From an uncultured Candidatus Saccharibacteria bacterium (lineage in GTDB: Bacteria; Patescibacteriota; Saccharimonadia; Saccharimonadales; CAZDQS01), in assembly GCA_964507855.1 (NCBI GenBank), contig CAZDQS010000001.1, forward strand, positions 166,121 through 230,120: a DNA stretch of 64,000 nt. Direction: 5' to 3'. Position numbers and translations under genes: made by a program. The notes beneath the pieces were generated by a model. It saw only the letters and a program-made list of their open reading frames with translations, was not told the DNA's origin and did not search any database. This document shows, in pieces, positions 3,838 to 60,227 of the stretch (position 1 is the first letter of the stretch; each line of letters begins with the position of its first letter).

Positions 3838-3869
3838 AAAAAGCCCTGGGGTTACCCCCAGGGCTTTTT
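3838..3869. terminator. bidirectional rho-independent terminator
   Basis: AAAAA-GCCCTGGGG-TTAC-CCCCAGGGC-TTTTT: perfect 9-bp GC stem flanked by an A-run and a T-run, between convergent genes. Confidence 0.7.
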
Positions 3870-10166: not shown

Positions 10167-10168
10167 TA

Positions 10169-10201
10169 ATGAGACGAGTTGACTCTTCTTCTCATCACGC
10201 C
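10169..10201 (+). repeat. partial copy (E) of the intergenic repeat family: hairpin-1 module only
   Basis: TAATAATGAGA...TTCTCATCACGCC starts at the stop codon of the upstream gene. The same TAATAATGAGA..TCTCATCGCGC junction occurs at 37907-37986. Confidence 0.35.
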
Positions 10202-10562
10202 ACGAGCCAAATGGATTCACTTGTGGGTTATTGCTGTCGGTTGGGGTTTTGGGCTTGATCGACGATGCGGGGCATTTCAGTCAACTGCCGGGTAAGTTCC
10301 TCGGTTGGTACGGCACCCCGCTGCATAAAGCCATCGACATCTACTCGCCGTGAAGGTGGTATAATTTGCGGTCCTTCGGCAGGTGGTTCGGCTCTTCTTT
10401 CTCAGTGCCTGTTACCGCCTTGGCGGCTCAAACTTACAGCGCCAAAAACAGCGTTTACTAAATTGACTTCAGGGATTGCTTGTAAATCCCTTTGTGGTGG
10501 GTGGTAATATTCTTGCATGCATCAGATTATACCAATGAGGCTAAGAGATTTATACTAGTACC

Positions 10563-17581: not shown

Positions 17582-17606
17582 CTCTTTTACTATAGCATAA
17601 GAGGTA

Positions 17607-17723
17607 TTGAGAGGAGATGATTTCTCCTCTCAACGCGCCGGGCAGTCGAATAAATCGCCTACTCGGGCTGCTCTTCCCAAGCAGCGAAATCAATAAAGTT
17701 GAAGTGAATTCAACTTTATTGAT
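17607..17723 (+). repeat. intergenic structured repeat, copy A (three hairpin modules plus conserved core)
   Basis: Hairpin 1 is TTGAGAGGAGA/TCTCCTCTCAA. Core is CGCGCCGGGCAGTCGAATAAATCGCCTACTCGGGCTGCTCTTCCCAAGCAGC. There is a 15-bp perfect AT-rich hairpin at 17689-17723. The core recurs at 37981 and 57090 (reverse). Confidence 0.6.
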
Positions 17724-17753: not shown

Positions 17754-19055
17754 TCAGGCTGAGTGGGCAAAGTTGTCTCTCAGCCATTCGTCTAAACTGT
17801 TTCCGCCGCCGCCGGCCATGCCGACAACCATGTCGCCGTGGTCGAGGTGCTGCTGGATGGCTTGCTTGAGTGTGTCGTCACGCCTTGCAGCTTCGGCAAT
17901 TGAAGGGTCGGTTAAGCGTTCAATAAGTTCCTGCGGCTCGATGATTCGTAGGCCAGGGTCTTCGCGGGCGAGATAGCTGGGCAGCCAGTAGACCTTCTTG
18001 GCACCGTTGAAGCAGTCTTTGTAATCATCAAGCATATAGTGTTGGCGGCGGTTCGTAAGCGGTTCGTACACAACAACAACACCTTGGTTTTTGTCGCGTG
18101 CCAATTCCGTGGCGACACTCATGGCGCCGCGGATTTTGTCCGGCGTATGGGCCTCGTCACTGTAGAGATTGGGCGTAATCTGTTCCATGCGGCGGTGGAG
18201 GCCGGGGAAACGGTTGAGGATGTCCGCTAGCTTCTCGTACGGCTCTTGGAGCACTTCAGCGACTGCCTGGAGGGCAAGTGAGGCGTTTTCGCGGTTGTAG
18301 CGGCCGGCAAGCTCTAGCTCGTTAATACGCGGGTCGGTAAGCGGTGGTGCGAAGATATTAGGCTGGGATTCAAGGTCGAGATAATCTGCCTCGCGATCCC
18401 ACAGGATGGTCCATTGGCTTTGGGAAATAAACTGCCGGAAAGCCTGCTTGTAATCATCGCGGGTCGGGTAGATTTCATGGTGGTCGTACGAGACGCCGCT
18501 CACAATGCTCAAGTACGGCGAAAAAGCCAAGAAGTTACGGTCGAATTCATCAGCTTCGTAGACGAAGTATTCACTTTCAGGATCAAACTGGCCCATATCA
18601 CCGAAGCTTACTTTGGCGCCAACAGAGTAGCTTACCGGAACGCCTAGCTCCTTGAACAGCCACGTGACCATTGCGGTCGTCGTGGTCTTGCCGTGCGTGC
18701 CGGCAATGGCGATAAGCTTGAGACGCTTTTCCTCAATAATGTGGTTGAGCAGCTCATCACGCTTAGACAGCTTGATGCCATGCTCGCGTGCGAAGGCGAG
18801 CTCGGGATGATCGGGATTTTCCTTCTCGACAGCTGATGAATAGACAAGCCAATCAATAGGCCGCTCAGCATGGAGAGCGGCAAGTTTGTCTGCCGACTGC
18901 CCGATATGGATGTGGCTGATGCCTTTCTGGTGAAGGTAGTCAATGTACTGGGACGATTGCTTGTCGGAGCCGGAAACAGTATGTCCGGCCTGAGTAGCAA
19001 TGAGCGCCAACGGACTCATGCCGACACCGCCGATACCTGACACAAAAATATGCAT
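17754..19055 (-). CDS. murC: Mur ligase, UDP-N-acetylmuramate--L-alanine ligase-like
   Basis: N-terminus HIFVSGIGGVGMSPLALIA..GHTVSGSD; P-loop AGTHGKTTTTAMV; Mur ligase middle and C-terminal regions. Confidence 0.7.
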   Translation of the reverse strand: MHIFVSGIGGVGMSPLALIATQAGHTVSGSDKQSSQYIDYLHQKGISHIHIGQSADKLAALHAERPIDWLVYSSAVEKENPDHPELAFAREHGIKLSKRDELLNHIIEEKRLKLIAIAGTHGKTTTTAMVTWLFKELGVPVSYSVGAKVSFGDMGQFDPESEYFVYEADEFDRNFLAFSPYLSIVSGVSYDHHEIYPTRDDYKQAFRQFISQSQWTILWDREADYLDLESQPNIFAPPLTDPRINELELAGRYNRENASLALQAVAEVLQEPYEKLADILNRFPGLHRRMEQITPNLYSDEAHTPDKIRGAMSVATELARDKNQGVVVVYEPLTNRRQHYMLDDYKDCFNGAKKVYWLPSYLAREDPGLRIIEPQELIERLTDPSIAEAARRDDTLKQAIQQHLDHGDMVVGMAGGGGNSLDEWLRDNFAHSA

Positions 19056-30320: not shown

Positions 30321-30428
30321 AGCAAGGAGTATACCAGGCTACGACTAGAAAGAATCAGTATGACGATATTGAAAACACAAATCTTTGGTGGGGGTGGAAG
30401 GAATTGAACCTTCGACCAATCGGTTATG

Positions 30429-31041
30429 CACGCCACTACAACTTTCGTTGCCTCTTTCGAGTTTGTGGTCCGGACTGTCTCTTCATCCGCCAGGTGGCGG
30501 ATGCCTGCCGTACAGTCTCTACACCTTCCTCGGCAGTAATGCCGGGGCTTGGCTCGGGATTGCCTTACCGCTGATGGCTATAGGGTTCCCCGAATTTGAC
30601 AGGATATACTTACTGGTTACCCGGTAAGCAGCCCTTAGTTTTTTGGCATATCTAAGATAACATGTAGTTATGAAGACTGGGTCTAACTGCCGAATTTGCC
30701 AGAAAAAACTGGCGGGTAAACAAACACTTTACTGTTCAGTACTCTGCAAGAACAAATTTCATCAATCCTACCCTTCACAGAAAAAGCGAGGGCTTGAACG
30801 AAAACTTCGTTTTGTCCGAGAACTTGGAGGAGAGTGCTCGCTTTGCGGCTACTCAGCTAATCTTGCCGCCTTAGTATTTCATCATGTAGGCGGCAAAGAA
30901 TTTCAACTGGACGTTCGTGCCTTGTCGAATCGTAAGCTGGAGCCAATTCTCAAAGAAGTAGCAAAATGCAAACTCCTTTGTCATAACTGCCATGCCGAGG
31001 TCCATAACCCCGGACTAGACTTAGCCAAATTGTTAACTACG
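30429..31041 (-). mobile_element. group I intron (IC3, Azoarcus tRNA-Ile-intron-like core)
   Basis: The 5' exon ends in U and the intron ends in G. The core GUCAAAUUCGGGGAACCCUAUAGC..GGCAAUCCCGAGCCAAGCCCCGG..GCCGAGGAAGGUGUAGAGACUGUACGGCAGG closely matches the remembered Azoarcus ribozyme sequence. Confidence 0.8.
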
Positions 31042-31056: not shown

Positions 31057-31222
31057 CCACTGAGCTACACCCCCCTGTCATCGACGTGTGATTTGTACGG
31101 TAGCTAGCGGCGTGTTCTGTCGCTTTTAGCTACCTTGTCATGCCGTCTTCTTCTATAAAGCTGTAAACCACTTGATTTACAGCTTTATGGTACAACCCAG
31201 TAACATCTGTGAGTATAGCAGA

Positions 31223-37523: not shown

Positions 37524-37753
37524 CCAGTCCTACACACCAGCCAGTAAACTTCCTGGCAAAGCCAGAAATTTTACTGGCTTCTTGGCCGATTTCCGGCTTG
37601 ACGGCTCCGGTACACAGTCACCGTACCTTTTGTACGGCTCCCTTGCGTTCCTCGCCGCCGCACCGAAACTCGGTTCAAGTGTGTAGTCCTGGGGCATGTA
37701 GTATAATGTGGTGTACAGCTTACTAAAACAAAAATAAGCAGAAAGGGAACAAT

Positions 37754-37909
37754 ATGGGTATATTCGGACTCGGCTCAAGCGCAAAGAAGACGGCCAAGAA
37801 AACCGCAGCCAAGGGCAAGAAGCCGGCAAAGGGCAGATCAAAAGACGCTCAGGAAGTCTTGGCTAAGATGAAGGCCAAGAAAGATTCCGGCGACTGCGCA
37901 TTCTGTTAA
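37754..37909 (+). CDS. small Lys-rich protein (51 aa) ending GDCAFC, hypothetical
   Basis: ATG preceded by GAAAGGGA; TATAAT at 37702-37707. Sequence MGIFGLGSSAKKTAKKTAAKGKKPAKGRSKDAQEVLAKMKAKKDSGDCAFC. Below the ORF-track length cutoff. Confidence 0.4.
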   Translation: MGIFGLGSSAKKTAKKTAAKGKKPAKGRSKDAQEVLAKMKAKKDSGDCAFC

Positions 37910-37911
37910 TA

Positions 37912-38071
37912 ATGAGAAAACCATTCGCAGCCCATTCGGCCTAATATAGGCGAACGGGGCCTCTGGATAGGTTTTCTCATCGCGCGGGACGGCCGAATAA
38001 ATCGTCCGTTCCGGCTGCTCTTTCCAAAGAAGCTGACAAGGAAATTCTGAAATAAATTCAGAATTTCCTTG
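37912..38071 (+). repeat. intergenic structured repeat, copy B
   Basis: Hairpin 1 is ATGAGAAAACC...GGTTTTCTCAT with a 47-nt insert. Core is CGCGCGGGACGGCCGAATAAATCGTCCGTTCCGGCTGCTCTTTCC. There is a 15-bp AT-rich hairpin at 38037-38071. Confidence 0.6.
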
Positions 38072-38160: not shown

Positions 38161-38227
38161 ATCGCGCCGGCTGCTTTCCTACCAGCCTGATAATAAAAGT
38201 TTGGAGTGACTCCAGACTTTTATTAAG
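38161..38227 (+). repeat. intergenic structured repeat, short copy D (lacks the CGAATAAATCG hairpin)
   Basis: ATCGCGCC-GGCTGCTTTCCTACCAGCC followed by the hairpin ATAAAAGTTTGGA-GTGAC-TCCAGACTTTTAT. Confidence 0.45.
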
Positions 38228-48158: not shown

Positions 48159-48193
48159 AAAATAGAGCTCCAGGCAAATGGAGCTCTATTTAT
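48159..48193. terminator. strong bidirectional terminator
   Basis: AATAGAGCTCCA-GGCAAA-TGGAGCTCTATT, a 12-bp perfect stem flanked by A/T runs, between convergent units. Confidence 0.75.
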
Positions 48194-53055: not shown

Positions 53056-53080
53056 GTTTAAGTCCTAGATGAATCAAAAA

Positions 53081-53115
53081 CTAAATGAATCCGGAACATC
53101 ACCGGATTCATTTAG
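53081..53115. terminator. bidirectional terminator
   Basis: CTAAATGAATCCGG-AACATCA-CCGGATTCATTTAG, a 14-bp perfect stem between convergent genes. Confidence 0.7.
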
Positions 53116-53486
53116 TTAGTGGCACTTTTTGAAGTGACGGTGCAGGTAAAGTCATGTATCCGTACCGGTGGTGTCTGTAGCTCTTCTCCCGGCAGTGCTT
53201 CGTCTGTGGTGTCGAGACTGCCCAGGAGATTTCCGGTAGCATCGTAGTAGTGACTTTCGGCTATATAACCGCCGCTGCCGGTCACTATGTAAACGCGCTC
53301 GTCCCCCTTGGTGCACGATTCAACACTGGCGCCGGCGCTGTCTTTGTACTTGTCGCTTAGCTCGTGGAACTTTGTCTGGGCCGCTCCTGGAACGCCGCCG
53401 CTCGGCCGGAAAAGATACCAAAAGATTGCAGCCAGTACAATAAGTCCAAGTGCGAGACTAGCGCGAATGCGAGGATTTTGTAGCAT
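53112..53486 (-). CDS. hypothetical membrane-anchored protein
   Basis: N-terminal TM helix and a small extracytoplasmic domain with 2 Cys. Confidence 0.45.
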   Translation of the reverse strand: MLQNPRIRASLALGLIVLAAIFWYLFRPSGGVPGAAQTKFHELSDKYKDSAGASVESCTKGDERVYIVTGSGGYIAESHYYDATGNLLGSLDTTDEALPGEELQTPPVRIHDFTCTVTSKSATN

Positions 53487-55302: not shown

Positions 55303-57084
55303 ATGGACCAGTCACGTATCAGAAATTTTTGTATTATTGCGCATATTGACCACGGCAAGTCGACGTTGGCCGACAGGCTGTTGGAGCTAACTGGCACGGT
55401 CGCGCAGCGGGAGATGAAGGCACAGCTCCTGGACAAGATGGACTTGGAGCGCGAAAAGGGCATCACGATTAAGCTGACGCCCGTACAGATGCGCTATCAA
55501 GACTATGAGCTGAACTTGATAGATACGCCCGGTCATGTGGACTTCAGCTATGAAGTGTCGCGCAGCCTTGAGGCGTGCGAGGGGGCGATTTTGGTGGTTG
55601 ACGCTACCCAGGGTATTCAAGCTCAGACACTTGCCAATGTGTATCTGGCTATGGGTGCTGACCTGACCATTATCCCGGTCTTGAACAAAATTGATCTGCC
55701 GGCTGCTGACGTGGAGCGGGTAAGCGGCGAGGTTATGAGCTTGCTCGGCTGCAAGAAAGAGGACATTTTGCTTATTTCCGCCAAGACAGGTCTGGGTGTC
55801 GAGACTGTACTGGAACGGGTTGTTGCTGACGTGCCGCCGCCTTCTGGCAAGACGGATGAGTCGGCGCGGGCGCTTATTTTTGACAGTTATTATGATGATT
55901 ACCGCGGTGTCATTCTCTATGTTCGCATGGTTGATGGCGCGATTGGAAAAAATGACAATATCCACATGATGTCTGCCGGCTCAAGCGGGATCGCCCTGGA
56001 AGTTGGTGCGCTTAGGCCTGAAATGGCACCGCTCCCCGCACTCCAGACGGGCGAGATTGGCTATATTGTCACCAACCTCAAGTCTACCCGCGAGGCGAGA
56101 GTCGGCGATACGGTCACGCTGGTCAAACAACCAGCCGCTCATCCCTTGCCGGGCTATCAGGACGTGAAGCCGTTTGTCTATGCCGGCTTCTTCCCGGACA
56201 GTAATGAGAATTACCAGTTGCTGAAAGAGGCGATTGAGAAGCTGTCACTCAGTGACTCAGCCTTGCAGTTTGCGCCTGAGAATTCGCCGGTACTTGGCTT
56301 TGGCGTGCGCATTGGATTCCTCGGCCTGCTGCACATGGACATCGTGCGCGAGCGGCTGGAGCGTGAATACGGGCTGGATCTGGTCGTCACCAACCCCTCG
56401 ACAGACTACCAGGTGGTGCTGGTGAATGGTGATGAGCTGAATATTAAATCTGCGGCGGAGTTGCCCGATGTTGCTAAAGTGGCTGAAATCCACGAGCCGT
56501 GGATCAACGGCGAGGTGGTCGTGCCGAAGGATTATGTCGGTGGGGTCATTCAGCTCATTGTTAGCAAGCGCGGGCGGCAGAAGAACTTAAGTTTTGTTGA
56601 TGCACAATTGGCGCTCGTTACATTCGAGGCGCCTCTCGCTAATTTGCTGACTGATTTTTATGACCAGCTCAAGAGCATCACGTCCGGGTACGGATCGTTT
56701 AATTATGAGCTGGCTGATTACCGGGCAGAAGATTTGGTGCGGCTTGACTTCTATGTTGCCGGAGAAATGGTTAGCGCGTTAAGTATTATGGTGCACCGTA
56801 GCGAGGCCCAGAGTGTTGGGCGTGAGACAGTTGCGAAGCTCAAGGAGGTTATTCCCCGTCAGAACTTCCAGGTGGCGCTGCAAGCGGCTGTGGGCGGCAA
56901 GTTCATTGCACGTGAAGACATCAGCGCTTTCCGCAAAGACGTGACAACCGGCCTTTACGGCGGCGACGTATCCCGCAAAAAGAAGGTCCTTGCCAAGCAG
57001 GCAAAAGGCAAGAAGCGCATGAAGCGGTTCGGCAAAGTAGACATCCCCGCCGAAGCTTTTACAGTGCTACTGAAAAGGGATTAA
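55303..57084 (+). CDS. lepA: elongation factor 4 (LepA)
   Basis: IRNFCIIAHIDHGKSTLADRLLE, DTPGHVDF, NKID, C-terminal LepA_C. The track start at 55198 lies inside murJ and was rejected. Confidence 0.95.
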   Translation: MDQSRIRNFCIIAHIDHGKSTLADRLLELTGTVAQREMKAQLLDKMDLEREKGITIKLTPVQMRYQDYELNLIDTPGHVDFSYEVSRSLEACEGAILVVDATQGIQAQTLANVYLAMGADLTIIPVLNKIDLPAADVERVSGEVMSLLGCKKEDILLISAKTGLGVETVLERVVADVPPPSGKTDESARALIFDSYYDDYRGVILYVRMVDGAIGKNDNIHMMSAGSSGIALEVGALRPEMAPLPALQTGEIGYIVTNLKSTREARVGDTVTLVKQPAAHPLPGYQDVKPFVYAGFFPDSNENYQLLKEAIEKLSLSDSALQFAPENSPVLGFGVRIGFLGLLHMDIVRERLEREYGLDLVVTNPSTDYQVVLVNGDELNIKSAAELPDVAKVAEIHEPWINGEVVVPKDYVGGVIQLIVSKRGRQKNLSFVDAQLALVTFEAPLANLLTDFYDQLKSITSGYGSFNYELADYRAEDLVRLDFYVAGEMVSALSIMVHRSEAQSVGRETVAKLKEVIPRQNFQVALQAAVGGKFIAREDISAFRKDVTTGLYGGDVSRKKKVLAKQAKGKKRMKRFGKVDIPAEAFTVLLKRD

Positions 57085-57089
57085 ATCCC

Positions 57090-57166
57090 ACAAGCTGGGG
57101 AGAGCAGCCGGAACGGGCGATTTATTCGACCGTCCCGCGCGATGAGAGGGGGCGTCCCCCTCTCAT
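57090..57166 (-). repeat. intergenic structured repeat, copy C (inverted orientation)
   Basis: The reverse complement reads ATGAGAGGGGG-ACG-CCCCCTCTCAT-CGCGCGGGACGGTCGAATAAATCGCCCGTTCCGGCTGCTCTCCCC, about 90% identical to the copy B core. Confidence 0.6.
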
Positions 57167-57179
57167 AAGGCGCAGCCGC

Positions 57180-57224
57180 GACATCCCCGCCGAAGCTTTT
57201 ACGGTACTCTTGAAGCGCGATTAG
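57180..57224 (+). other. displaced second copy of the lepA 3' terminus (DIPAEAFTVLLKRD-stop)
   Basis: 45 nt parallel to 57040-57084: the first 23 nt are identical, followed by 8 substitutions that are all synonymous, ending in TAG. Confidence 0.7.
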
Positions 57225-57317
57225 CAAAAGCAGTAAGTAACATTCTTAACAGACCACATACCAGCTGGCTTGTATGCTGTTGCTGCGGTTATGTAAAATA
57301 GAGAAGGAGATTACCGA

Positions 57318-57725
57318 ATGGATAAGAAGCAGTTTTTTCTCCACAAAGGCAACGCGCGCATCGCTGAAGCAGCATTTATTCTTATTGGTTTATTTTTATT
57401 CGCTGTGATAGGACATGTTGCGATGGGGCGGGCGCAGGACAAGGAGTCTGTGGTGGGTGTGCAGGAGTCGGTTGCTCAGGGACTTGAGGCAAACTTTCCT
57501 ATGACGGCTCGAAACGTACTTGCGCACACAGAAATGAGCGAGCTATCGCCCGTCGAAGTGTCGCCGACATCATCACGCCCAGGAAACAACGAAGATACAG
57601 ATGGGACAAAAGCACGCTCACGGTATCATAACCGTCACACCTCCCGGCGGCCGGTGCAAGTCGAAGATCGATTGCATATTGATGCCCGCTTGCGAGGACG
57701 TCTGGGCTCGAGTGTGCAAAATTGA
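57318..57725 (+). CDS. hypothetical membrane-anchored protein
   Basis: GGAG RBS, one TM helix, basic C-terminus. Confidence 0.4.
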   Translation: MDKKQFFLHKGNARIAEAAFILIGLFLFAVIGHVAMGRAQDKESVVGVQESVAQGLEANFPMTARNVLAHTEMSELSPVEVSPTSSRPGNNEDTDGTKARSRYHNRHTSRRPVQVEDRLHIDARLRGRLGSSVQN

Positions 57726-58502: not shown

Positions 58503-58529
58503 CTGGCACTCTTGATTCATGAGTGCTAA
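58503..58529. promoter_or_regulatory. CIRCE operator (HrcA site), variant left arm
   Basis: CTGGCACTC-N9-GAGTGCTAA compared with the consensus TTAGCACTC-N9-GAGTGCTAA; lies 28 nt upstream of hrcA. Confidence 0.7.
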
Positions 58530-58556
58530 TACTCTAAACTATCATTAGAGGTTTCT

Positions 58557-60153: not shown

Positions 60154-60227
60154 CTGGCACTCTTGACCTTTGACTGCTAATTTTTTATGCTAGAATTGTA
60201 TTAGCACTCAAACAACCTATCTGCTAA
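60154..60227. promoter_or_regulatory. two CIRCE-like operators flanking the dnaK promoter region
   Basis: CTGGCACTC-N9-GACTGCTAA at 60154-60180 and TTAGCACTC-N9-ATCTGCTAA at 60201-60227. TTGACC and TATGCT/TAGAAT hexamers lie between them. Confidence 0.55.

Follow-up and report, generated by a model that had tools for sequence, protein, structure and literature searches.

Saccharibacteria genomes measure about 1 Mb and carry almost no spare DNA. In a stretch of 64,000 nucleotides from one of them (hereafter the window, meaning the whole stretch that was analysed), an earlier note had described a family of intergenic repeats built from several hairpins, with full copies near 17.6, 38.0 and 57.1 kb and partial copies at 10.2 and 38.2 kb. 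The locus raises the question of what such a repeat is, where it sits and how it can be accommodated in a genome of this kind.

Copies of the repeat in the window

The 3 full copies were recovered as A (17606-17682, + strand), B (37912-38029, + strand) and C (57093-57167, - strand), and a covariance model scored them at 83, 79 and 75 bits, respectively (E ~1e-20 to 1e-22). Copy A has the architecture that had been proposed, namely a first hairpin (H1) with arms TTGAGAGGAGA and TCTCCTCTCAA, a CGCGC linker, a second hairpin (H2) with the tip CGA-ATAAA-TCG, and then GGCTGCTCTTCCC; its H2 holds one additional C.A mismatch and its tail is degenerate relative to the mirror rule described below. Exact matches to the block GGCTGCTCTYYCC occur in the window at copies A, B and C only, and the same holds for CGAATAAATCG, for which 4 matches with up to one mismatch were seen against 1.07 expected. 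The cores of B and C, said to be about 90% identical, differ at 4 of 50 positions, and the exchange of C/T in B for T/C in C at the variable positions of H2 is as had been described. Orientation to the flanking genes is indeed inconsistent, copies A and C being antisense and B sense; B begins 3 nt past the stop codon of the ORF at 37754-37909. The presumed partial copy at 10.2 kb proved to be decayed but full-length (15.8 bits, E = 0.01, with the filters of the model off), and it occupies the site orthologous to that of the intact copy at locus L013, after a gene ending in ...WY[FY]Y*. The features are collected in Table 1.

Table 1. Coordinates of the element copies and of adjoining features in the window.
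Feature	Position	Strand	Basis
Copy A, H1 TTGAGAGGAGA-TGATT-TCTCCTCTCAA, purine-rich 5' arm	17607..17633	+	sequence, covariance model
Copy A, conserved linker CGCGC	17634..17638	+	sequence, covariance model
Copy A, H2, in which the A[AUAAA]U tip and two non-Watson-Crick positions are conserved	17638..17666	+	
Copy A, conserved GGCTGCTCT and pyrimidine tail	17666..17679	+	
Perfect 15-bp AT-rich palindrome beside copy A, outside the element	17689..17723		
Copy B, H1 ATGAGAAAACC ... GGTTTTCTCAT, with an extra arm of ~45 nt in the loop	37912..37980	+	
Copy B, CGCGC linker, H2 (37985-38013), GGCTGCTCT, tail CTCTTTCC	37981..38027	+	
Perfect 15-bp AT-rich palindrome past copy B, separate terminator-like feature	38037..38071		
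Copy C, H1 ATGAGAGGGGG-ACG-CCCCCTCTCAT	57142..57166	-	
Copy C, CGCGC linker, H2 (57137-57109), GGCTGCTCT, tail CTCTCCCC	57097..57141	-	
Functional lepA 3' end DIPAEAFTVLLKRD*, upstream member of the 44-nt direct repeat flanking copy C	57040..57083	+	
Displaced second lepA 3' end	57180..57223	+	
Decayed copy, H1 retained, H2 and tail eroded	10168..10242	+	

Thus, the family as first described stands in its full copies and in the covariation of its stems (see below), and 3 of its parts fall away. The partial copy at 38.2 kb is a mere 18-nt likeness (38162-38179) which the model does not detect. The GCTGCT...AGCAGC module, taken for a conserved hairpin, is perfect in copy A and locus L007 only, and its register moves between copies. 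The terminal AT-rich perfect hairpin is separate from the element, since palindromes of this type (13-17 bp) also stand at gene ends without it (at 3838, 31148, 37539, 48160 and 53079); the one next to copy A is probably the bidirectional terminator of the Mur-ligase gene at 17754-19055 (- strand). Scans for sigma-70 promoters and terminators around the 3 window copies gave nothing above shuffles, and the make-up of an intrinsic terminator, a GC-rich hairpin with a U-tract in sense orientation at a gene 3' end, was not found, most copies being antisense or upstream of start codons.

An uncatalogued family among Saccharibacteria

Searches of genomes and metagenomes, of the kind that the earlier note had proposed, returned many further copies in relatives. 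The exact core pattern matched 13 loci among 185,579 species genomes, all 13 of them in Candidatus Saccharibacteria, and 22 loci in metagenomes, and the covariance model then gave 43 strong copies (E <= 1e-10) in 31 sources, its matches including 10 copies outside the seed pattern. Because that pattern imposed the invariance of two blocks in 35 of 45 copies, the conservation of these two blocks is overstated. No copy was present in IMG/VR viral contigs, where three matches to a loose pattern were due to chance. That the repeat belongs to no known family was borne out by a scan of copies A and L006 against Rfam 15, which yielded no relevant family either at the gathering threshold or at E <= 10, the latter giving just chance-level miRNA/sRNA matches on the neighbouring palindrome; in the literature on Saccharibacteria repeats or RNA motifs we found no description of it. 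The family is uncatalogued and, among the genome matches, confined to Saccharibacteria.

The element is small, non-coding, multi-copy and insertion-polymorphic, with no conserved reading frame through it. A hidden small ORF was considered and discarded, given that frames differ among subfamilies and stops appear wherever H1 closes with T-A. Likewise, likenesses to the hammerhead, the hairpin ribozyme, group II domain V and attC did not survive alignment, and the integron attC cores GTTRRRY and RYYYAAC are absent from the element alignment.

Fold and covariation

The core spans ~77 nt and the element about 80-120 nt, or 100-125 nt where its closing helix, P0, is counted. On the strand used by the earlier note, the order is P0, H1, CGCGC, H2, GGCUG, a pyrimidine tail, AGCUACAG and the 3' strand of P0. 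This outer helix and the mirror symmetry of the tail are new, having gone unseen in the earlier note. P0 has a variable sequence, often GCUUCGC/GCGAAGC, closes many copies and covaries among them (GCUUCGC/GCGAAGC, AGCCU/AGGCU, CGCUG/CAGCG, GUAUACC/GGUAUAC and GCUCC/GGAGC). H1 consists of ~10 bp, of which the lower 5-6 carry the purine on the 5' arm throughout, and H2 of 8 bp, a pyrimidine-pyrimidine mismatch, 3 bp and an A[AUAAA]U cap, with a conserved G.(U/G/A) position. At L014:2602, H2 has been replaced and H1 and the tail have been kept.

In the true register 94.8% of the cells are paired, compared with 39-52% in slid controls, and double-sided changes are found in 16 of 20 pairs, a result reached by 0 of 500 shuffles, although these statistics overstate independence because the sequences are related. 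The compensatory changes that had been noticed in the stems are thus strongly upheld. A UNCG tetraloop in H1 was rejected, as the register fixed by the stem gives a 3-nt loop, C[UNC]G, which on the other strand reads C[GNA]G.

A mirror tail and a candidate triplex

The pyrimidine tail mirrors the sequence of the H1 3' arm. Across 42 distinct sequences, the 5' base of H1 columns 4-9 is a purine with 0 exceptions among paired cells, whereas the outer and upper pairs of H1 flip. The mean mirrored run between tail and 3' arm is 6.3 nt, compared with 5.0 in shuffled sequences (p < 5e-5), and the lengths of their U-runs correlate (Spearman 0.93). In copy C the tail CTCTCCCC is a perfect 8-nt mirror of the arm, and L029:3028 shows a compensated pair, GAGGA/CUCCU. 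That the tail pairs with H1 in antiparallel Watson-Crick fashion was discarded, the block order being mirrored and the antiparallel control ~0. Together, the mirror tail and the strictly homopurine/homopyrimidine lower H1 suggest a candidate intramolecular triplex, for which the major-groove signature (a homopurine strand with a covarying mirror third strand) is present at the level of sequence.

ENE/MALAT1 triplexes and H-DNA have in common with the element this homopurine/homopyrimidine helix with a mirror third strand, a Hoogsteen signature that we compare by sequence only. However, the ENE clamps an A-rich tail between two U-rich strands, whereas the purine strand of the element is internal, and the mirror halves of H-DNA are contiguous, whereas those of the element are ~45 nt apart, H2 included. 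The mid-helix C.U mismatch of the element could presumably play the 'reset' role known from MALAT1.

Placement in transcripts

In ~3/4 of the copies, the strand treated as forward by the earlier note runs antisense to the only obvious transcription; in the transcribed slots described below, the purine-rich reverse complement is nearly always the sense strand. Exceptions of the G.U and A.C types are equally rare on either strand, and folding energies show no strand preference with RNA parameters and slightly favour the reverse complement with DNA parameters. Three P0 helices (L004, L008 and L016) have G.U on the reverse-complement strand and A.C on the other.

The interval between a Shine-Dalgarno sequence (SD), GAAAGGAG, and the AUG contains a copy in at least 13 cases, in front of rplK (5 loci), rplA, nusG, tsf, ssb (2 loci), groEL, rpoD, a DEAD-box helicase gene and others. 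In the clearest cases, 0-2 nt separate the SD from the start of P0 and 8-11 nt separate its end from the AUG, near which there is no second SD. Orthologous sites that are empty have canonical SD-AUG spacing, as seen for nusG in L015, L020 and L002, rplA in L002 and groEL in L005. Altogether, the occupied slots comprise SD-AUG spacers of 6-11 nt, the tips of 23S helices, the leaders and spacers of rRNA and tRNA genes, and the 3' ends of genes; besides the leaders from rplK to rpoD, the element is thus present within rRNA, past the ends of genes and in the opposite orientation. Some sites are occupied across species (rplK at 5 loci, ssb at 2, mraZ-rsmH at 2 and lepA at 4), which also fits a conserved functional cis-element.

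In the 23S rRNA gene of L014, one copy lies in the loop of helix 25 and another in helix 63, and two more occupy the tRNA-23S spacer; the helix-25 insertion falls at position 583/584 of the Rfam LSU model. The tips of helices 25 and 45 are where 23S rRNA intervening sequences (IVS) typically insert. Copies adjacent to rRNA genes were also found in L030 and L022. Of the insertions reported in Saccharibacteria rRNA, 64 of 66 are short (<= 250 bp) and uncharacterised (PMC11270868).

Two promoter candidates were set aside. The one that precedes the forward copy of L001 (11 of 12 matches), considered as an sRNA promoter, more simply drives the downstream tRNA, and one within the element (TTGAGG-17-TCAAAT, reverse strand) was dropped because the same bases covary as a stem. 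Separately, we observed an enrichment at highly expressed core genes which would be unexpected for a purely selfish passenger.

Flanking duplications and the lepA site

Direct repeats flank 8 copies, with lengths of 10, 11, 15, 26, 31, 39, 44 and at least 62 nt, and none were seen at SD-AUG sites. Duplications of such variable length fit no known transposition chemistry and could have originated by recombination, and no transposase, reverse transcriptase or integrase is linked to the element to date. In L006, L010, L024 and copy C, whose ends lie between flanking repeats, no terminal inverted repeats were found beyond the 4-nt CUGU/ACAG; the two hallmarks of MITEs, matching terminal inverted repeats and a target duplication of fixed length, are both missing from the element. 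A single inverted doublet was seen, in L001.

Copy C separates two lepA 3' ends (Table 1) that are 84% identical, with differences that are all synonymous. The displaced one resembles the native ends of relatives (...AAGCGCGATTAG). L009, L010, L033 and the window have a copy at this site, and four relatives with a LepA identity of 83-85% have it empty; no copy was found in the 82 kb of these four. A DGR-type template/variable repeat was rejected for this duplication because the differences are not adenine-specific. The comparison of insertion sites that the earlier note had proposed thus supports mobility, through presence and absence as well as flanking duplications. In these genomes the element has spread by copying to new positions, and it persists in transcribed non-coding slots; its insertions in essential transcripts apparently leave them unbroken.

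Discussion

The reading that we consider best, with a probability of about 0.5, is that of a Saccharibacteria-specific family of non-coding, non-autonomous, self-folding insertion elements, which would resemble rRNA IVS, REP elements and MITEs. The earlier suggestion, of either an RNA with a defined structure or a MITE/REP-like mobile DNA module that a protein recognises, is supported in that no confident Rfam or known-REP assignment emerged, further copies and covariation did, and relatives hold more than degenerate terminators devoid of a conserved core. The element would be tolerated in essential slots because it folds by itself into a closed excursion (P0, H1 and H2), perhaps locked by a triple helix of H1 and tail, and this excursion would keep the flanking host sequences adjacent, holding an SD close to its AUG or one half of an rRNA helix next to the other. 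Covariation by Watson-Crick pairs and the invariance of the junction blocks may result from purifying selection on a harmless fold and/or from structure-specific recognition of a single-stranded intermediate by a putative mobilising enzyme.

Known systems resemble the element in part. With the 23S rRNA IVS it has in common the helix 25 site, the lack of an ORF and a closing stem, and it is also found in helix 63, in rRNA sense orientation; however, the classical IVS is confined to rRNA and defined by RNase III excision, whereas the element also occurs in mRNA leaders and at gene ends, and its multi-hairpin core is conserved. REP/BIME (REPIN) elements, which are mobilised by RAYT (Y1 HUH) transposases, are also short, non-coding, structure-conserved, intergenic and co-transcribed with genes; the CTGTAGC common at one reverse-complement end of the element recalls their GTAG foot, and the doublet of L001 their inverted doublets. 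The restriction of covariation to Watson-Crick pairs would suit a single-stranded DNA form, and so would the GCGAAGC and the C[GNA]G loops of one strand. A REP is nevertheless a single palindrome of 20-40 nt, usually in inverted pairs, whereas the element has 80-120 nt, three or four helices and, at some copies, long flanking duplications. The repeats Correia/NEMIS of Neisseria, ERIC/IRU of enterobacteria and BOX/RUP of pneumococci, which can alter the expression of neighbouring genes, are likewise multi-copy, lineage-specific, RNA-folding sequences of ~100 nt in or near transcription units, but they have terminal inverted repeats and short target duplications of fixed length (TA for Correia), the former lacking and the latter variable or absent in the element; we know of no description of their exact insertion into SD-AUG spacers or rRNA helices. 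Finally, the split ribosome-binding site of phage T4 gene 38 also has a distant SD and AUG, ~100-125 nt apart around the element, where P0 would reunite them; the T4 hairpin, which is no mobile repeat, measures ~20 nt.

A bolder version, which we put forward tentatively as 'structural splicing', sees a mobile element of a new kind, specialised in colonising those non-coding slots that are best protected in a minimal genome. Here, the P0-closed, triplex-locked fold would rejoin the interrupted host signal without cleavage or ligation, and harmlessness at SD-AUG spacers and rRNA helix tips would depend on such rejoining. The strict co-orientation with transcription and the preference for the most highly transcribed genes would reflect a transcription-coupled mechanism, with insertion into single-stranded non-template DNA or through an RNA intermediate as candidates.

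The same placement between SD and AUG can be read as regulation in cis, an explanation that we regard as rather unlikely. The reverse-complement strand would then form an mRNA- or rRNA-embedded domain, a four-way junction in which either the folding state or a protein bound at the A[UUUAU]U loop and at the invariant blocks of the junction determines the effective SD-AUG distance and so co-regulates translation of rplK, rplA, nusG, tsf, ssb, groEL and rpoD, dispersal being secondary. The constant layout (SD, 0-2 nt, P0...P0, 8-11 nt, AUG) with no second SD, the functional coherence of the host genes, the occupancy of rplK, ssb and mraZ-rsmH kept across species, and the G.U pairs that P0 of L004, L008 and L016 has on this strand would all agree with it. 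However, copies also reside in 23S helices, past lepA and, in the sense orientation, directly downstream of stop codons, where translational control makes no sense, close relatives lack the element at nusG, rplA and groEL, and insertion-like duplications flank several copies.

Improbable, in our judgement, is a functional forward strand, acting as an sRNA or 3'-end module in which the pyrimidine tail occupies the H1 major groove and U.A-U and C+.G-C triples protect the 3' end in the manner of ENE/MALAT1, antisense copies being cis-antisense RNAs against the ribosome-binding sites they overlap. The succession of purine arm, loop, pyrimidine arm, spacer and mirror tail is that of a classical pyrimidine-motif intramolecular triplex, and forward-sense copies do lie directly past stops or 16S rRNA and before terminator hairpins (B, L013 and L022), but some three quarters of the copies are antisense to the evident transcription, the one strong upstream promoter is better assigned to a tRNA, the window copies lack promoters, and in tails of class I (CUCUCCCC) four neighbouring cytosines would all have to be protonated.

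We give slightly less credence still to a cassette for RNA processing that would fragment rRNA, as the classical IVS does, or trim leaders, acting as a self-cleaving ribozyme of a new type or as a substrate of RNase III. Several helices meeting at a junction, unpaired blocks that do not vary and a possible triplex contact would suit such a role, as would the dispersal in multiple copies and the presence at helix 25, the classical IVS site; against this, no Rfam ribozyme or other family matched the element even at E <= 10 in the scan of copies A and L006, cleavage between SD and AUG would strip essential mRNAs of their only SD, and P0 has only 4-9 bp, whereas RNase III usually needs a helix of ~20 bp. 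Degenerate intrinsic terminators or chance hairpins are practically dismissed, for the terminator-like long palindromes after copies A and B occur independently of the element, H1 and H2 are followed by no U-tract (as the earlier note had argued in denying that these are simple terminators), copies sit within rRNA and between SD and AUG, and model E-values are ~1e-20.

In organisms with minimal genomes, then, an element occupies the ribosome-binding sites of rplK, rplA, nusG, tsf, ssb, groEL and rpoD as well as 23S rRNA. If its fold keeps these genes working, they would be natural cases of a ribosome-binding site split by ~100 nt and rejoined through RNA structure, and the element, if this is true, would be a selfish one that uses essential sites as safe harbours, being neither intron nor intein. 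For at least a part of the 'short insertions' reported earlier from rRNA genes of Saccharibacteria, the family provides an identity, and the mirror-repeat covariation offers a clean, testable candidate for a bacterial triple helix. The covariance model would also help the annotation of these genomes, in the calling of start codons, the definition of rRNA boundaries and the design of 23S primers and probes.

The repeat family and its copies in the window

Exact searches of the window confined both GGCTGCTCTYYCC and CGAATAAATCG to copies A, B and C (the latter, allowing up to one mismatch, gave 4 matches against 1.07 expected), and the covariance model with filters off scored these copies at 83, 79 and 75 bits (E about 1e-20 to 1e-22), bearing out the three full copies described in the earlier note; their conserved blocks are not chance. 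The partial copy noted at 10.2 kb was recovered as a decayed one, 3' of a gene ending in ...WY[FY]Y* that bears an intact copy in the related locus L013, while that proposed at 38.2 kb proved a mere 18-nt resemblance (38162-38179), undetected by the model. Copy A is flanked by a Mur-ligase and a histidine-kinase gene, each on the - strand, copy B begins 3 nt past the stop of a 51-codon ORF, and copy C lies immediately 3' of lepA. An additional arm of about 45 nt sits within the hairpin 1 (H1) loop of copy B (37923-37969; CATTCGCAGCCCATTCGGCC…GGCGAACGGGGCCTCTGG), an insertion seen in no other copy.

The pattern CGAATAAATCG-N8-GGCTGCTCT occurred at 13 loci in GTDB (one genome per species), 13/13 in Candidatus Saccharibacteria MAGs, and at 22 loci in metagenomes; a search of viral contigs gave no match. 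Both collection scans used this strict seed, which inflates the conservation of its two blocks. The covariance model, trained on 30 copies, detected 43 at E <= 1e-10 in 251 kb, and the ten that deviate from the seed, with loop stems GGA/UCC, CAA/UUG, GAA/UUC or AGA/UCU around a conserved A[RUAAA]U and with GGCUGCUCU replaced by GGGCCGCUCU or GACUGCUCU, show that the "invariant" blocks vary slightly. The family is as unfamiliar as had been supposed: Rfam 15 gave no match at the gathering threshold nor at E <= 10, and no published description was found in the literature searched. One survey (PMC11270868) reports 66 rRNA insertions from Saccharibacteria, of which 64 are short (<= 250 bp) and belong neither to the introns nor to the carriers of homing endonucleases.

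Features in the window (coordinates) and in related loci of genomes and metagenomes (L handles)
Feature	Position or locus	Strand	Detail
Copy A, H1	17607-17633	+	TTGAGAGGAGA-TGATT-TCTCCTCTCAA
Copy A, linker		+	CGCGC, directly after H1
Copy A, hairpin 2 (H2)		+	CGGGCAG-T-CGA-ATAAA-TCG-C-CTACTCGG
Copy A, 3' of H2		+	GGCTGCTCTTCCC
Copy B	37912-38029	+	Plan as copy A, stem sequences different
Copy C	57093-57167	-	Plan as copy A, stem sequences different
Decayed copy	10168-10242		15.8 bits, E = 0.01; model, filters off
AT-rich palindromes at gene ends, no element	3838-3869, 31148-31195, 37539-37579, 48160-48191, 53079-53117		
Further AT-rich palindromes	17689-17723, 38037-38071, 38191-38225		First after copy A, second after copy B
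SD-spacer copies, rplK	L002, L007/L015, L020, L026		
SD-spacer copies, ssb	L018, L019		
SD-spacer copies, groEL	L016/17/27		
SD-spacer copies, other			rplA, nusG, tsf, rpoD, DEAD-box helicase, two unknowns
Copies 3' of lepA	Window, L009, L010, L033		
Copies between mraZ and rsmH	L011, L012		
Copy between overlapping genes	L003		
H1 3' arm from base / tail			CUCUCCCC / CUCUCCCC
H1 3' arm from base / tail			CUCUUUGGGG / CUCUUCCC
H1 3' arm from base / tail			CUCUUUUGG / CUCUUUCC
H1 3' arm from base / tail			CUCUUUUUGG / CUCUUUUCCC
H1 3' arm from base / tail			CUCUUUUUUG / CUCUUUUUCC
H1 3' arm from base / tail			CUCCU... / CUCCU...

Covariation of the fold

The compensatory stem changes first read from the window copies extend through the family. 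Among 42 distinct sequences, standard pairs filled 94.8% of cells, compared with 74% after shuffling and 39-52% with slid partners, both-sided changes occurred in 16/20 pairs, and none of five covariation measures was reached by any of 500 shuffles, statistics that count related sequences as independent. Three non-Watson-Crick positions are conserved: C.U in mid-H1, G.(U/G/A) in H2 and a pyrimidine-pyrimidine position below the H2 tip. In many copies the fold is shut by a further helix, P0, built from sequence beyond the 77-nt core and covarying freely (GCUUCGC/GCGAAGC, AGCCU/AGGCU, CGCUG/CAGCG, GUAUACC/GGUAUAC, GCUCC/GGAGC), so that a four-way junction is predicted. Copy A and L007 form a perfect GCTGCT/AGCAGC hairpin, listed earlier as a module; in other copies its register is shifted or the pairing absent, and we do not count it as part of the element.

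Insertion between Shine-Dalgarno sequence and start codon

At least 13 distinct copies share, on the sense strand of the gene, the order GAAAGGAG, 0-2 nt, P0[element]P0, an A/U-rich spacer of 8-11 nt and AUG, with no second Shine-Dalgarno sequence (SD) near the AUG. Orthologues that lack the element have ordinary sites: nusG reads GAAGGAG-11 nt-ATG (L015/L020) or AAGGAGAGAAGAGAGAATT-ATG (L002) where empty and is occupied in L025, the proteins being 95% identical; rplA is empty in L002 (GGAAGGA-7 nt-ATG) and occupied in L020, and groEL is empty in L005 (AGGGAG-6 nt-ATG) and occupied in L016. Thus, spacers of essential genes have gained an insert of about 100-125 nt. The constant geometry and conserved occupancy support a genuine translational regulator of core genes; the copies in rRNA and at 3' ends, together with the relatives that lack the element, weaken this reading, which we hold to be unlikely. 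At L003:7700-7850 and L035:640-800 a duplicated start codon opens an ORF of 36-38 codons that reads across the element on its reverse-complement strand as far as a TGA sharing bases with the real start codon (ATGA), an arrangement that might couple translation from one side of the insert to the other. The two frames differ, and therefore no conserved peptide is encoded.

The 16S-tRNA-tRNA-23S operon of L014 holds one copy in the 23S helix 25 loop (model position 583/584), another inside a helix 63 expansion of about 230 nt with base GCCCCGUCAC/GUGACGGGGC (helix 63 numbered by comparing the sequence with the Rfam model) and two in the tRNA-23S spacer. Its Saccharibacteria 23S rRNA gene (L014:69-3409, -) exceeds the Rfam model in length by about 416 nt, and each of its inserts, of about 130 nt (helix 25 loop) and 230 nt (helix 63), comprises one element copy plus further hairpins. 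Copies also adjoin 23S and 16S in L030 and L022, and L001 has an inverted pair in a tRNA leader, 3' of an 11-of-12 promoter match.

Mobility and the lepA site

Around eight copies, host sequence is duplicated as flanking direct repeats of 10-62 nt, often leaving both neighbours preserved; the 26-nt repeat of L003 keeps the rmlB stop on one side and, on the other, the SD and ATG of the gene that follows. Downstream of lepA the duplication covers the last 44 nt of the gene in the window and at least 62 nt in L010. The two lepA ends of the window (57040-57223, +) differ at 8 positions, all synonymous, and it is the displaced downstream end that resembles the native ends of relatives (...AAGCGCGATTAG), unlike the functional upstream one (...AAAAGGGATTAA). 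Acquisition of the element with a foreign lepA end by recombination accounts for this pattern at least as well as duplication by a staggered cut does. The site is empty in four relatives with 83-85% LepA identity, and the covariance model found no copy in 82 kb of these relatives.

The frame of the displaced end is open backwards through the entire inserted element (…GEQPERAIYSTVPRDERGRPPLIRRSR-DIPAEAFTVLLKRD*), and no start codon was found for it. In relatives (L036:7041-7052, L038:11782-11792) a first guanylate-kinase-like gene begins 9-10 nt past lepA; it is missing from the window (57224-57600), where a 135-codon ORF (57318-57725) with no match in Pfam precedes the second kinase gene.

Neither terminal inverted repeats nor a fixed duplication length was found at the ends and flanks of the loci compared, nor any associated enzyme gene in the loci examined. 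We consider the repeat a non-autonomous self-folding insertion element, with a probability of about one half. Although reminiscent of rRNA intervening sequences, REP elements and MITEs, it conforms to the definition of none of them.

Strand and the mirrored tail

Genomic context points to a strand much more clearly than thermodynamics does. At otherwise paired positions G.U (about 8) and A.C (about 5) are equally rare, minimum free energies with RNA parameters show no strand preference, and DNA parameters slightly favour the reverse complement (29 versus 14 copies, p = 0.003, mean difference 0.6 kcal/mol). Of 41 H1 loops, 16 are C[UNC]G, which is C[GNA]G on the reverse complement, and the heptamer GCGAAGC recurs beside them; both motifs are unusually stable in single-stranded DNA. 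In about three quarters of copies it is the reverse complement that is read as sense by the transcription unit around the element; those oriented the other way (copy B, the 10.2-kb remnant and the copies of L013 and L022) stand directly 3' of a stop codon or 16S rRNA.

Paired cells in lower H1 (alignment columns 4-9) always have their purine on the 5' arm (G-C, A-U, G.U) and never read Y-R in the 42 distinct sequences, while either orientation occurs freely at the two closing pairs and at those on top. The pyrimidine tail that follows GGCUG repeats the H1 3' arm in mirror order and is not its complement: the mirrored run averages 6.3 nt, longer than the 5.0 nt obtained when distinct types were shuffled 20,000 times (p < 5e-5, optimistic because the sequences are related), the reversed-tail control gives runs of about 0, and U-run lengths of tail and arm correlate (Spearman 0.93). 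The L014:2602 variant has H2 replaced and keeps H1 with its matching tail. Block order excludes antiparallel Watson-Crick pairing of the tail with H1 and is as required for third-strand Hoogsteen pairing. We infer that a triplex best explains this covariation; its triples would be U.A-U and C+.G-C on the forward strand, on which the repeat was first read, or G.G-C and A.A-T(U) on the other. That the element acts as a forward-strand RNA with a protective 3' triplex is improbable, and a processing cassette or ribozyme quite improbable.

AT-rich palindromes and other neighbouring features

The AT-rich perfect hairpin previously taken for the last module has equivalents at gene ends where no copy of the element is near, and we treat these palindromes as an ordinary, separate feature. 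They span 13-23 bp, perfect or near-perfect, with arms A-rich at the start and T-rich at the end, as in bidirectional terminators, which they probably are in this organism. That the element copies themselves are terminators or chance has a negligible probability.

A group I intron (RF00028, 54 bits, 30448-30657) lies within 30385-30657 (-), followed by an apparent 3' half of a tRNA (…GGTTCAATTCCTTCCACCCCCACCA); ARAGORN called no tRNA gene there, and the arrangement matches the intron-split tRNA genes recently described in Patescibacteria (PMC13011429). A direct repeat (58503-58546 and 60154-60197) containing TGGCACTC-N9-GAGTGCTAA, GACTGCTAA in the second copy, constitutes an HrcA operator of the CIRCE type and precedes the hrcA-grpE and dnaK genes. 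In a Saccharibacteria MAG, a cobalamin riboswitch (L006:2369-2516, +; 42 bits) lies about 1.6 kb from an element copy.

Implications for the family

The insertion-element reading and its rivals are not mutually exclusive; Correia and ERIC elements are mobile and regulatory at once. As an insertion element, the repeat would survive in transcribed non-coding positions by virtue of its closed fold, which leaves the host signal that it interrupts contiguous.
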